Sequence record: PZ583738.1
Strand: one strand, 5' to 3'
Origin: a phage
DNA length: 64,000 nucleotides
The translations under genes were made by a program, and so were the position numbers. Positions 15,047 to 21,239 of the stretch are shown here, piece by piece (position 1 is the first letter of the stretch; every line of letters starts with the position of its first letter). The notes under the pieces are model-generated. The model saw nothing but the letters and a program-made list of their open reading frames with translations. It was not told the DNA's origin and did no database searches.

Positions 15047-15208
15047 ATGGCTAAGAAAGAAGTTAAAGTTGTTGATGGCTCTTCCAAACGCGCTGGTTAC
15101 AAGCGTGCGTCCAACCAGCGAATCAATCAGGTAACTGATAAACTTCAGGCTCGTGCTCGTGCGGTATTGCGTGCCGATGCAGCTTGCTTTGGTAAGCCGA
15201 AAGCATAA
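15047..15208 (+). CDS. hypothetical small basic protein (53 aa, MAKKEVKVVDGSSKRAGYKRASNQ...)
   Basis: Not in ORF track (below 60 aa); weak AAGAG RBS; immediately followed by a strong GGGACTC-TTCG-GAGTCCC-T6 terminator. Confidence 0.4.
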   Translation: MAKKEVKVVDGSSKRAGYKRASNQRINQVTDKLQARARAVLRADAACFGKPKA

Positions 15209-15213
15209 GTTCA

Positions 15214-15237
15214 GGGACTCTTCGGAGTCCCTTTTTT
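15214..15237 (+). terminator. intrinsic terminator GGGACTC-TTCG-GAGTCCC-T6
   Basis: Perfect 7-bp GC-rich stem, tetraloop, T6. Confidence 0.8.
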
Positions 15238-15252
15238 ATTTTCCATAAAGGG

Positions 15253-15282
15253 GTTTACAACAGGGTTTGACCAGTGCATAAT
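15253..15282 (+). promoter_or_regulatory. early promoter (GTTTAC -35, 18-nt spacer, CATAAT -10)
   Basis: Upstream of ORF 15326; shares a 22-nt block with the promoter at 37118. Confidence 0.6.
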
Positions 15283-15325
15283 GATTCCATACTGAGTTGC
15301 ACATTAAACAAATGAGGAAAATACT

Positions 15326-15613
15326 ATGTTTATGACTACTTACTTTGATACACGCAAAAATTTCTGTGAAGTTGTTTTCTCTAAAAAAGGCCCTAATGTT
15401 CCTGCTGGGTGTGAACCAACTAAAGAATCCATTAAAAACTATGTGGATATAGTTTGCCCAGTTGAATTCAGGACTGTTAATGGACGTGATACGCTGGCAA
15501 TCACCAAGCTTCGCCGTGACATTGATATTGACCCAATTGCAGCACGTGAAATTAATTCGTCTGATATTAATGGCGGTAATGTTAAATCACACGGTTTCCA
15601 GATGAGGTTCTAA
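15326..15613 (+). CDS. hypothetical protein (30.x array)
   Basis: 95-aa ORF with GAGGAAAA RBS downstream of early promoter. Confidence 0.55.
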   Translation: MFMTTYFDTRKNFCEVVFSKKGPNVPAGCEPTKESIKNYVDIVCPVEFRTVNGRDTLAITKLRRDIDIDPIAAREINSSDINGGNVKSHGFQMRF

Positions 15614-15808: not shown

Positions 15809-16021
15809 ATGTTTAAGAAACTGATTCAGAAAATTTTGGGAACAGAAATGGTTGAAGTTACTTATCGTGTAACAGACGTGAGTCCATGGGCCCGAAATAT
15901 TGAACCATATACTAAAACAATTAAAATGCTGAAATCTGACGGTGGATTGTCTATTAAAGACCGTCTACCTGGTTATGGTCATTGGGCAAACGTTGATGTA
16001 GTAAGTGTCAAAGATGTCTGA
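15809..16021 (+). CDS. hypothetical protein
   Basis: 70-aa ORF with AGGA RBS. Confidence 0.5.
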   Translation: MFKKLIQKILGTEMVEVTYRVTDVSPWARNIEPYTKTIKMLKSDGGLSIKDRLPGYGHWANVDVVSVKDV

Positions 16022-16472
16022 GTTAGAAATCAGAAGCAATTTCCCATGGCCATCATGTGCATTAAGTAACTTTGCTAAATGGCCTTTTGTTATGGATGGC
16101 ATCCAGTTTGGAGGTCTTGAAGGCTTCCTACAAGGGTGCAAGGTGAGAAATAATGAACAACAAAAACGTATATTTGGGATGTCCGGGCTGGTCGCACAAC
16201 AAACTGGAAGAGCTTATGCTAGAGCTGCGGACCGTGGGACGCTTTTCTGGCTTGGAATTCCCTTTTCAAGATACTCTGCATCATGGAAAGAGTTGTATAC
16301 AAATGCTTATTTTGAAGCAGCGCTCCAAAACAAAGGATTCCGCGACGCATTACAAGCTACAAAGGGGAAAGTTTTAAAGCATTCGATGGCGAGCCACCTT
16401 ACTGTTCATGATACAATATTGACTGAACAAGAATTTATTGACATACTTAACCAATTGAGAGATGCATTATGA
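16014..16472 (+). CDS. gene 30.3-like protein with NADAR/YbiA-like motifs (tentative)
   Basis: ATG at 16014 overlaps upstream stop (track start 16005 is GTG); LSNFAKWPF..DG...GLEGFLQGCK pattern resembles the FSNF..WP..DG...EHYFQA.K signature I associate with NADAR (DUF1768) domains; position matches T4 30.3. Confidence 0.55.
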   Translation: MSELEIRSNFPWPSCALSNFAKWPFVMDGIQFGGLEGFLQGCKVRNNEQQKRIFGMSGLVAQQTGRAYARAADRGTLFWLGIPFSRYSASWKELYTNAYFEAALQNKGFRDALQATKGKVLKHSMASHLTVHDTILTEQEFIDILNQLRDAL

Positions 16473-17293
16473 AACCCGTTATTTTAACAGATATTGATGG
16501 CGTATGTTTGTCATGGCAGTCTGGCTTGCCTTATTTCGCCCAAAAATATAATTTACCCCTGGAACATATCCTTAAGATGATTCAGGATGAAAAATTTGTG
16601 ACCCCTGGTAAACTGTTCAATTGTGATGAAGAGTTGGGAGCACAGTTGATTGAGAAATATAACTGTTCAGATTTTATTCGCTATTTGTCTCCTTACGCGG
16701 ATGCGTTAAGGGTTATTAATAACCTCAAAGAGCAATATGATTTTGTGGCTGTTACAGCCCTGGGTGATTCCATTGACGCCCGTCTGAATCGTCAATTTAA
16801 CCTGAATGCTTTGTTCCCTGGAGCGTTTAAAGAAGTGATGATGTGTGGTCATACAGCCTCTAAAGAGGATTTGTTTCAGAAGGCAAAAGACAAATATAAT
16901 GTCATTTGTTATATTGATGACCTTGCACACCATTGCGACCATGCGAGTGAAATTCTTGAGGTTCCGGTTTATTGGATGGCCCGCGGCGAACGTGATGCTA
17001 TTCCTAAAACAGCTTCCAAAGTTTTTAATTGGGACGATGTTGCTGGACAGCTTAAACTGAAACACAAAGATGAACCGGTCAAACCAGAATTCACTCCAGA
17101 TGAACTCCGTAAACTGGAAGAGCTGTTTCGTGAAACTCGACGCCTTCAACAACAAATGCAGCAAGGCTGGCAGCCTGGTCAACCGTGGACTCCTGGATAT
17201 AATCCAGCATATCCATATCAATATGGCCAGCGTGTAGGTACTGGTATTGAATACTGGTACAATCAACCGACCGGTGGCCAAGGGGGTAATTGA
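16469..17293 (+). CDS. HAD-superfamily 5'(3')-deoxyribonucleotidase-like protein (30.2 position) with Q/P/G/Y-rich C-terminal tail
   Basis: N-terminal ILTDIDGV motif typical of HAD phosphatases; C-terminal ~50 aa low-complexity region. Confidence 0.6.
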   Translation: MKPVILTDIDGVCLSWQSGLPYFAQKYNLPLEHILKMIQDEKFVTPGKLFNCDEELGAQLIEKYNCSDFIRYLSPYADALRVINNLKEQYDFVAVTALGDSIDARLNRQFNLNALFPGAFKEVMMCGHTASKEDLFQKAKDKYNVICYIDDLAHHCDHASEILEVPVYWMARGERDAIPKTASKVFNWDDVAGQLKLKHKDEPVKPEFTPDELRKLEELFRETRRLQQQMQQGWQPGQPWTPGYNPAYPYQYGQRVGTGIEYWYNQPTGGQGGN

Positions 17294-19114: not shown

Positions 19115-19116
19115 CA

Positions 19117-19137
19117 AAAGGGCTTCGGCCCTTTTTT
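19117..19137 (+). terminator. intrinsic terminator GGGC-TTCG-GCCC-T6 after DNA ligase
   Basis: Stem-loop plus T6; A-run upstream. Confidence 0.75.
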
Positions 19138-19139
19138 AG

Positions 19140-19147
19140 TATAAATA
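19140..19147 (+). promoter_or_regulatory. late promoter TATAAATA for alt
   Basis: Exact octamer ~30 nt upstream of alt ATG, directly after the ligase terminator. Confidence 0.7.
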
Positions 19148-19172
19148 CATCATATTTTATAAGGAACCTATT

Positions 19173-21239
19173 ATGTCTGAACAATTAAATGAACTCTTTG
19201 ACACCGATACAGAAGGTCTGAACTACCCTGTCATTGATATGAACCCGAAATATAAAGTACCACAGGTGTGGCACTTCGCTGTTCCTGGTACAGATTCTCT
19301 TATGGCTCGTTTGATGCAATTCACGGGCAAAGAAACTGTTAAACAATATAAACGTGGCGATGCGATTGCTGAGGTATTCCTGCTCTCCGGTACTTCACAC
19401 GGTCATGCTGTTCCTCTGAAAGGCGGTTTAGGTGAAAAACCTATTGATGCGATTAACCTGATTTTTACTACTGTCTGGGAAAGCATTAAACTAGGCAAAC
19501 CAGATGTAGTATTGTTCCGTTTCCCATCCAAAAAGATGAAAGGACAAGAGCAAGCTGTTATTCGTATTATGACTCGACTGATTCAGATGAAAACTGGTGG
19601 CCGTTATCGTGTTCTTCCGAATGCTTCTGGCCTTGGTAAAAAGAACGCATACGTAATTATGTACAAAAAAGGTGTTGACCTGCTTTCGGTTGATGGTATG
19701 CCACCAGTCCCTGCGAAATATCAAAAAGTCGAAACTAAAGTTGGCGATGTATTCACTGATAAAGATACAGGTACACAGGTTTCCAACCAAGAAATCGCGG
19801 CCGAGATTCTGATTGATGCAGCAAACAAAAAGACTGATGCTTCTGTTGCGCAGAAAACAAAAATCAGTCGCAGAGCTATCGCACAGGCCCAGTATGCACT
19901 TCGAGATGAAGTTCCCGAAGGTTGGGATGAAATTGATGCAGAAGCTGCTAAATTTAGCAAACCGGTAACTGCTGAACCAATAAAGAATTATAAAGAATTA
20001 CAAACTATTATTAAACCATCGGATGCTAATGCGATGTTCCGTATGAAAGCAGCAGATTATGCTATGCGTTCTAACGGGGTGTGGAAAGAAGAAATTCGTA
20101 TTGAAGATACTGACCCTATTTTTAATCGCATGCACCGTGAACTTAAACGTGCTCCGGTTGGCAGTATGAAGCAGATGCAGATTTTTGCTGAGTCATGTGC
20201 TGAGGTTCTTAATCTACGTAAAGCCGCATTTATCGAAAAACAAATGGCTTCTGCTCCACCAAATCTAAATGCAGCCGAATATGCAGCAGAGCTTTGGGAA
20301 AAAGAATATACTGCGGGAATTCGTGCGGCAGTTAATGATTTTGCAGACGACTCCACCGAAAGTATCTTGAATTTCGTTAGTAGCTACAATGAAGCCGCCC
20401 GTTTTACCGTAAGTCAAAAAGGAACAATCATGGGTTATTGTGGCGTTAACTATATTGACATCAACAATTATTTGATGGGTAATTATTACGAGGAAGAAGC
20501 TGAATTCCTTAATAGCGCTAAAGATGTTGCACATAAAATAAAAGTGATGGACTCGGCATTTGAGGTTGGTCAAAAACTACCTCCAGATATTACTCTATGG
20601 CGTGGTCAATATCTAAACGTTCCTACGTTTAATAAAATTAAGCAGTCGAAGTTATTTTATTTCCGTAACTATGTATCAACATCCCTTAAACCGATTATCT
20701 TTGGCGGTTGGGTTGCAAACGTTGCTATGGCTGCAGTTCATCAGGATTATCGCGATGGAACCACTTTCCAGGGTGACGAGGAAATTGTGCTTCCTAATAT
20801 TCCTGGGGCAAATCCTGATAATGCAATGATGCATGTCGGTTGGAAAATCTCTGGAGCTGATTTAATTAACGTCATTCTTCCTGGTCAATTATCTAACAAC
20901 ACATCCGAGCAGGAAGTTATTCTTCCTCGTGGGACTGTAGTTAAGATTACCAAGATTACCGATGCATCGTATAAAGGAAACGCAAACGTCAAACTGTTGG
21001 AAGCTGATATCCAGACTACCGAAATGCTGGATGAAAATGCAGTTATCTATGATGGTGATGTGTTGATGGAAACTGGTGAGCTTGTCGTTTATCAGGGCGA
21101 GGAATCAGAAGAGCCAGTAGAATCTGTTGACTTTGCATCGTTTGCATCCTCTGGGGTAACGAAGAAAGTCAATCAAGGTCTTGGTATTCTTGCTAGTTGT
21201 ATTAATTTGGAAGCTATTCCTCCTAAATTCCTTTCGTAG
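19173..21239 (+). CDS. alt: Alt-like ADP-ribosyltransferase (virion-packaged)
   Basis: 688 aa; blocks matching T4 Alt as I recall it (KISRRAIAQ, FYFRNYVSTSL, EVILPRG, DFASF); TATAAATA late promoter ~30 nt upstream. Confidence 0.9.
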   Translation: MSEQLNELFDTDTEGLNYPVIDMNPKYKVPQVWHFAVPGTDSLMARLMQFTGKETVKQYKRGDAIAEVFLLSGTSHGHAVPLKGGLGEKPIDAINLIFTTVWESIKLGKPDVVLFRFPSKKMKGQEQAVIRIMTRLIQMKTGGRYRVLPNASGLGKKNAYVIMYKKGVDLLSVDGMPPVPAKYQKVETKVGDVFTDKDTGTQVSNQEIAAEILIDAANKKTDASVAQKTKISRRAIAQAQYALRDEVPEGWDEIDAEAAKFSKPVTAEPIKNYKELQTIIKPSDANAMFRMKAADYAMRSNGVWKEEIRIEDTDPIFNRMHRELKRAPVGSMKQMQIFAESCAEVLNLRKAAFIEKQMASAPPNLNAAEYAAELWEKEYTAGIRAAVNDFADDSTESILNFVSSYNEAARFTVSQKGTIMGYCGVNYIDINNYLMGNYYEEEAEFLNSAKDVAHKIKVMDSAFEVGQKLPPDITLWRGQYLNVPTFNKIKQSKLFYFRNYVSTSLKPIIFGGWVANVAMAAVHQDYRDGTTFQGDEEIVLPNIPGANPDNAMMHVGWKISGADLINVILPGQLSNNTSEQEVILPRGTVVKITKITDASYKGNANVKLLEADIQTTEMLDENAVIYDGDVLMETGELVVYQGEESEEPVESVDFASFASSGVTKKVNQGLGILASCINLEAIPPKFLS

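Follow-up and report, generated by a model that had tools for sequence, protein, structure and literature searches.

Introduction

Does the 152-aa ORF upstream of the ligase gene in this T-even-like phage encode an enzyme that erases ADP-ribose from DNA, and whose ADP-ribosylation would it erase? We addressed this question in a 64,000-nucleotide stretch of phage DNA (record PZ583738.1), hereafter the window. The corresponding region is 93–97% identical to Gaprivervirus-type T-even coliphages (TH44, VR25 and VR7), and its gene order is that of VR7 and T4.

The NADAR identity of phage gp30.3 has been pointed out before, by de Souza and Aravind (as cited in PMC11543638) and by Iyer et al. 2022. 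T4 gp30.3 was recently renamed AdfN (anti-DarT factor NADAR; Johannesman et al., Nat Commun 2025, PMC11825919). The function of 30.3 is thus already known and published for the T4 orthologue, and the window adds one more intact allele.

Results

Gene 30.3 lies within a tightly packed gene run

In the window, genes 30.6, 30.5, 30.4, 30.3, 30.2, 30.1 and 30 (ligase) follow each other in tight packing, with alt behind them, and the 30.x run is probably translationally coupled. Gene 30.3 (adfN; 16014..16472, + strand) is predicted to encode a 152-aa single-domain NADAR-fold DNA ADP-ribosylglycohydrolase, the orthologue of T4 AdfN. A mechanical ORF list opens the frame at GTG 16005, which gives 155 aa with the end at 16472. 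Starting from ATG 16014 gives 152 aa; the T4 orthologue is annotated with the same start codon, and the two proteins align without gaps from M1 to L152. Directly 5' lies gene 30.4 (15809..16021, + strand; 70 aa; PHROG 2042), whose stop overlaps the start of 30.3 by 8 nt (ATGTCTGA). Directly 3' lies gene 30.2 (16469..17293, + strand; 274 aa), the stop of 30.3 and the start of 30.2 overlapping as ATGA.

The ends of the run differ from those of some relatives. Genes 30.8 and 30.7 are missing at about 15209..15325, between 30.9 (15047..15208) and 30.6 (15326..15613). In VR7, VR25 and P896 these two genes take up ~840 nt, and relatives align across the 30.9–30.6 junction as two pieces with a span of ~1750 nt; the shorter arrangement is apparently common to DK-13 and the window. 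A strong terminator-like hairpin with a T-run (15213..15232) lies at the junction, followed by a sigma-70-like promoter match from a consensus scan (15254..15282, + strand) 5' of 30.6. This promoter-like site may, tentatively, mark the start of a 30.6-30.5-30.4-30.3-30.2-30.1-30 transcription unit. Because the scan returned no more promoter and terminator matches than expected for shuffled sequence, both sites are taken as tentative context only. At the other end, the ligase–alt gap measures 58 nt (19115..19172), and both the window and VR7 lack the small gene alt.1 of T4 and RB69.

A second ORF (16153..16377, + strand; 74 aa) lies in the +1 frame within 30.3 and is the equivalent of the annotated 30.3' of T4. 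We found no sign of selection on it: it is open only in close T-evens (in all loci of at least 84% identity, as 74–75 aa or as 53 aa from a later Met), its sequence drifts where it is open, and it is missing from RB69 and every distant relative.

The 30.3 protein is an AdfN orthologue with a NADAR fold

The protein matches Pfam Phage_30_3 (PF08010) with 216.3 bits (gathering cut-off 36; E 1.6e-64) and PHROG 652, and is 85% identical to T4 gp30.3 across 152/152 aa. A first-pass annotation of the window had described a 30.3-like 152-aa protein with a NADAR-like motif, and both the likeness and the motif are borne out. The 23 residues that differ from T4 AdfN include none of the invariant positions. 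With the family profile, 80 viral contigs were fetched, and neighbourhoods were compared in 85 loci. Genes 30.4 and 30.2 flank 30.3 in nearly all loci of at least 84% identity, the exceptions being L017 (30.4 undetected) and L014 (30.2 undetected).

The relationship to NADAR is reached less directly. The HMMER-type check against Pfam NADAR proposed in the first-pass annotation came out empty, with no match of the 30.3 protein to PF08719 at E ≤ 1 in a direct scan, and the NCBIfam search gave no match to any model. A PDB sequence search with the single protein returned YbiA (2b3w) as sole match (E 0.45). With the 52-sequence family profile YbiA was again on top, now at E 0.0086, and the sole other match, cystatin-C, was insignificant (E 0.9). 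PF08719 itself is matched by 14 of the 52 family members (best 1.5e-7), and hhalign aligned the family profile with E. coli YbiA over residues 15–122 (93.4% probability, E 2.4e-7). Comparison of the predicted model with NADAR structures, the other check proposed, indicated that the fold is clearly NADAR. Of the two observations that had been named as speaking against a NADAR, the absence of a Pfam NADAR match was indeed found, but the fold is on the contrary clearly that of a NADAR in the predicted model, and profile-level links point the same way. Since the direct Pfam NADAR and NCBIfam scans were empty, the link rests on intermediates, profile–profile and fold comparison, and by this route the NADAR relationship is solid.

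Together, our results make it very probable that this ORF, from a Gaprivervirus-like T-even phage, is orthologous to adfN (gene 30.3) and encodes the proposed anti-DarTG1 enzyme. Relatives of the protein are encoded in 1510 phage records, and among those listed nearly all are named "hypothetical protein"; the AdfN function, though published, has not yet entered annotation. As the genes are mostly "hypothetical", NCBIfam holds no model and Pfam separates PF08010 from NADAR, annotation of 30.3 as AdfN is warranted. This transfer, as AdfN, NADAR-type DNA ADP-ribosylglycohydrolase, is the practical gain of the analysis.

The active site is conserved and the allele is intact

The NADAR domain begins at about residue 3 of 152. 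Its N-terminal signature, L17-SNFAKWP-F25 (16062..16088, + strand), aligns with "FSNFAAWPI" of YbiA, and L17, S18, N19, F20 and F25 are invariant in the 52-sequence alignment. D28-G29, G34-LEGFLQ40 and K43 are further parts of the motif. The catalytic helix L35-EGFLQGC-K43 (16116..16142, + strand) carries E36 (16119..16121) and K43 (16140..16142), and its E-x-F-x-Q-x2-K pattern aligns with "SEHYFQAQK" of YbiA. Among relatives down to 35% identity, E36, G37, F38 and Q40 do not vary, and K43 is conserved to at least 90%. The third active-site residue, H123 (16380..16382, + strand), belongs to the last strand, directly after predicted strand 120–122, and is invariant among relatives. At this position His marks the phage gp30.3 type, Glu the YbiA family and Asp the BC4488/DarG1 type (PMC11543638, PMC11125620). 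In AdfN-T4, rescue is only partial with the E36A or the K43A variant, and E36A has no in vitro activity (PMC11825919).

The C-terminal helix (residues 138–151; 16425..16466, + strand), helical in the predicted model, is lost in the RB69 allele. RB69 gp30.3 carries a frameshift and ends at residue 137. This allele is non-functional, leaving RB69 sensitive to DarTG1, and AdfN-T4 cut at the RB69 end position has reduced activity (PMC11825919). The window allele is full length and keeps all family-invariant residues; the gene is an intact AdfN orthologue with conserved fold and catalytic residues. Being 85% identical to AdfN-T4, it is inferred to act likewise against DarTG1, and the intact allele predicts DarTG1 resistance of the window phage, unlike RB69.

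Published function of the T4 orthologue

The proposal that the NADAR enzyme counters an ADP-ribosylation-based defence, acting on DarT-modified guanine, has been demonstrated experimentally for the T4 orthologue (PMC11825919, PMC11125620). AdfN-T4 is a DNA ADP-ribosylglycohydrolase specific for guanine, and it is both required and sufficient for the phage to resist DarTG1 (Johannesman 2025; Toxins 2024; HIDEN-SEQ 2025). Upon deletion of 30.3, T4 and T2 no longer plaque on DarTG1 hosts, while ectopic expression of AdfN-T4 fully rescues RB69 there; the purified enzyme strips ADP-ribose off DarT1-modified DNA, the E36A variant fails to do so, and DarTG2 is not countered by AdfN-T4 (PMC11825919). 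An independent in vitro study found T4 gp30.3 to act on guanosine-ADPr and to be inactive on thymidine-ADPr (PMC11125620). The methods of that study give the construct as "residues 1-208", compared with 152 aa in the annotated T4 gene (L001:7308-7766).

The HIDEN-SEQ transposon screen of T4 (bioRxiv 10.1101/2025.11.20.689424, Data S6, control versus DarTG1) agrees in both respects. The mean for 30.3 falls from 261.0 to 0.7 on DarTG1 (log2FC -7.25, adjusted p 0) and is unchanged on DarTG2 (+0.03). On a plain K-12 host 30.3 is dispensable for T4.

The activity depends on the setting. T4 gp30.3 does not rescue uninfected cells from DarT1 toxicity (PMC11125620). Rescue of non-T-even phages by AdfN-T4 is weak; the protein is fully active only during T-even infection, and an additional phage factor has been postulated. 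As AdfN-T4 spares no uninfected DarT1 cells and rescues non-T-even phages weakly, the mechanism of AdfN action in vivo is incomplete.

Discussion

A model for the action of AdfN

We then propose the following model for the window phage. AdfN would be expressed early from the 30.x cluster as a free-standing NADAR-fold enzyme. The host DarT1 toxin would ADP-ribosylate phage DNA at guanine (N2) and thereby block replication. AdfN would hydrolyse the N-glycosidic bond between ADP-ribose and guanine N2, freeing ADP-ribose and returning the DNA to its unmodified state, and replication of the repaired phage DNA could resume to allow growth on DarTG1 hosts. Catalysis would rely on E36 and K43, a conserved pair, together with H123, which is specific to the phage type. 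In T-even phages, an orphan antitoxin-like NADAR removes DarT1 damage from the phage's own DNA, and this biology is already settled.

Alternative roles for the 30.3 protein

The first-pass annotation had also suggested that 30.3 pairs with Alt. Alt itself was verified at 19173..21239 (Pfam ADPrib_exo_Tox, E 6.8e-22), about 2.7 kb from 30.3 in a conserved early region, and Iyer et al. 2022 noted that NADARs are co-expressed with ARTs in T4-like phages, so that 30.3 might reverse or tune ADP-ribosylation by the phage's own Alt, ModA and ModB. However, Alt-type enzymes modify proteins, whereas every NADAR tested hydrolyses guanine-ADPr and none thymidine-ADPr, a protein substrate being unreported (PMC11543638, PMC11125620). 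Furthermore, T4 does not need 30.3 on plain K-12, a host in which Alt and Mod are active, and the neighbours of most gp30.3-type NADARs, both in the 80 fetched contigs and among the 85 loci, are entirely different. In the T4 screen on DarTG1, alt (log2FC -0.01), modA (+0.11) and modB (+0.13) are all neutral (bioRxiv 10.1101/2025.11.20.689424). The pairing is thus hardly credible, and we found no support for a functional 30.3–Alt link: the adjacency is inherited with the conserved T-even gene order.

Another reading would be an allele that has decayed as in RB69, or else a housekeeping N-glycosidase acting, like YbiA, on riboflavin intermediates. Inactive alleles do circulate, as RB69 30.3 demonstrates, and the closest PDB sequence match of the protein is YbiA, but the window protein is full length with its invariant residues and C-terminal helix kept, the third catalytic residue is the His of the phage type and not the Glu of YbiA, and the published phylogeny places the gp30.3 clade nearest DarG1, not YbiA. 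Both forms of this reading are highly improbable. It is improbable, too, that the enzyme acts mainly on soluble derivatives of ADP-ribose (cADPR-like immune signals or RNA-repair by-products) instead of ADP-ribosylated DNA. Iyer et al. 2022 proposed such a role for phage NADARs on contextual grounds, and in related loci a gp30.3-type NADAR adjoins a SLOG/DprA-like gene (L046), a gene encoding a kinase+HD protein (L057) or another NADAR, of the canonical kind (L078); yet in vitro the T4 orthologue acts on guanine-ADPr in DNA, and losing it is lethal specifically on DarTG1. Removal of DarT1-borne ADP-ribose from phage DNA remains our preferred reading.

Do the neighbours of AdfN take part?

The field's question is which T-even factor potentiates AdfN, and 30.4 and 30.2 are candidates. 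Judged from its AF2 model (pLDDT 87.8), gp30.2 is clearly a HAD-superfamily phosphatase, 5'(3')-deoxyribonucleotidase-like, although it has no Pfam and no NCBIfam match and is labelled "hypothetical" almost everywhere. Its best Foldseek match is cytosolic 5'(3')-deoxyribonucleotidase (cdN; 2jao, E 2.7e-8). Motifs I–IV are all present, with D8, D10, K132, D150 and D151 invariant and T96 conserved to at least 90%. The last ~70 residues form a low-confidence, disordered tail rich in Q, G, P, Y and W, whose length varies widely among relatives.

As a T-even cofactor of AdfN for DarTG1, gp30.2 was rejected: on DarTG1, insertions in T4 30.2 behave neutrally (log2FC -0.12, p 0.61; bioRxiv 10.1101/2025.11.20.689424), and only 23 of the 85 loci, mostly close T-evens, have a homologue of 30.2 within 5 kb of the NADAR gene. 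Given this neutrality, any NADAR–HAD cooperation would concern another target.

T4 30.4 insertions are mildly depleted on DarTG1 (log2FC -1.79, padj 0.014) and, in the part of the screen data covered (gene 26 onwards), 30.4 is the sole gene besides 30.3 whose fitness drops significantly on DarTG1 (bioRxiv 10.1101/2025.11.20.689424). Because the 30.4 stop overlaps the 30.3 start, the simplest and likely explanation is polarity on 30.3 or lost translational coupling. A direct role, with gp30.4 as the extra T-even factor that AdfN-T4 needs, could also account for the depletion, and the distribution of 30.4 does not separate the two. Genes 30.4, 30.5, 30.6 and 30.1 co-occur with the NADAR gene only in loci of at least 84% identity; since this says nothing beyond shared ancestry, co-occurrence was rejected as a functional signal.

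It is tempting to speculate that a gp30.3-type NADAR and a neighbour's product, the gp30.2 HAD or gp30.4, form a two-enzyme or functional module, but we regard this as unlikely. Of the two partners, gp30.2 is the better candidate and gp30.4 the weaker one. We favour gp30.2 because the start of 30.2 overlaps the stop of 30.3 in the window and in T4, because in Vibrio phage nt-1 an NT5C-family HAD gene (L004:4452-4952) occupies the same position and overlaps the 30.3 stop, and because Tenacibaculum phage pT24 (L005:4001-4879) encodes a 292-aa fusion of a gp30.3-type NADAR (residues 9–142) with a small HAD. The HAD domain of the fusion has a DFDST motif I and CLLDD with the DD of motif IV, its Pfam HAD matches being below cut-off. 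If such a NADAR–HAD module exists, its target or product would be one that DarTG1 assays do not show.

Several further arrangements were seen in the survey. Three different HAD types stand beside, or are fused to, gp30.3-type NADARs, namely 30.2, the nt-1 NT5C and the pT24 domain. In metagenomic phages, a canonical PF08719 NADAR lies directly 3' of the gp30.3-type NADAR with an ATGA overlap (L078:5001-5890), and the neighbours are a SLOG/DprA-like gene at L046:5472-6077 and an AAA_33 kinase with an HD phosphohydrolase at L057:5557-6465. At L022:5449-6756 the gene directly 3' is DNA-ligase-like, as judged by its N-terminal sequence alone.

Comparison with known systems

AdfN-T4 (PF08010; Johannesman et al. 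2025) is the closest known system. The window protein resembles it in identity (85%), equal length, neighbours, E36/K43/H123 and the C-terminal helix, and differs in the 23 substitutions outside invariant positions and in its source, a Gaprivervirus-like phage as opposed to the Tequatrovirus T4.

DarG1, the DarT1-associated antitoxin (BC4488-type NADAR; for example G. lovleyi NADAR, PDB 8bat, and E. coli C7 NADAR), differs in several respects. Gene 30.3 has no adjacent darT: its neighbours are 30.4, for which the domain search was empty, and 30.2 (HAD), and the sole nearby ART is Alt, of the ADPrib_exo_Tox type. DarG1 has Asp at the third catalytic position in place of His123, and its N-terminal extension is absent from 30.3. 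In uninfected cells the T4 protein cannot substitute for DarG1. YbiA (E. coli, PDB 2b3w) and Phytophthora NADAR (PDB 8bau) show about 20% identity, their third catalytic residue is Glu, and the role of the YbiA clade is a housekeeping one in riboflavin intermediates.

AdfN-Bas32, AdfN-Bas60 and AdfM follow the same principle of counter-defence, in which an orphan hydrolase resembling an antitoxin removes ADP-ribosylation from DNA. AdfM, the product of T4 tk.4, is a macrodomain directed against DarTG2 and differs from 30.3 in fold. [quoted passage not shown]
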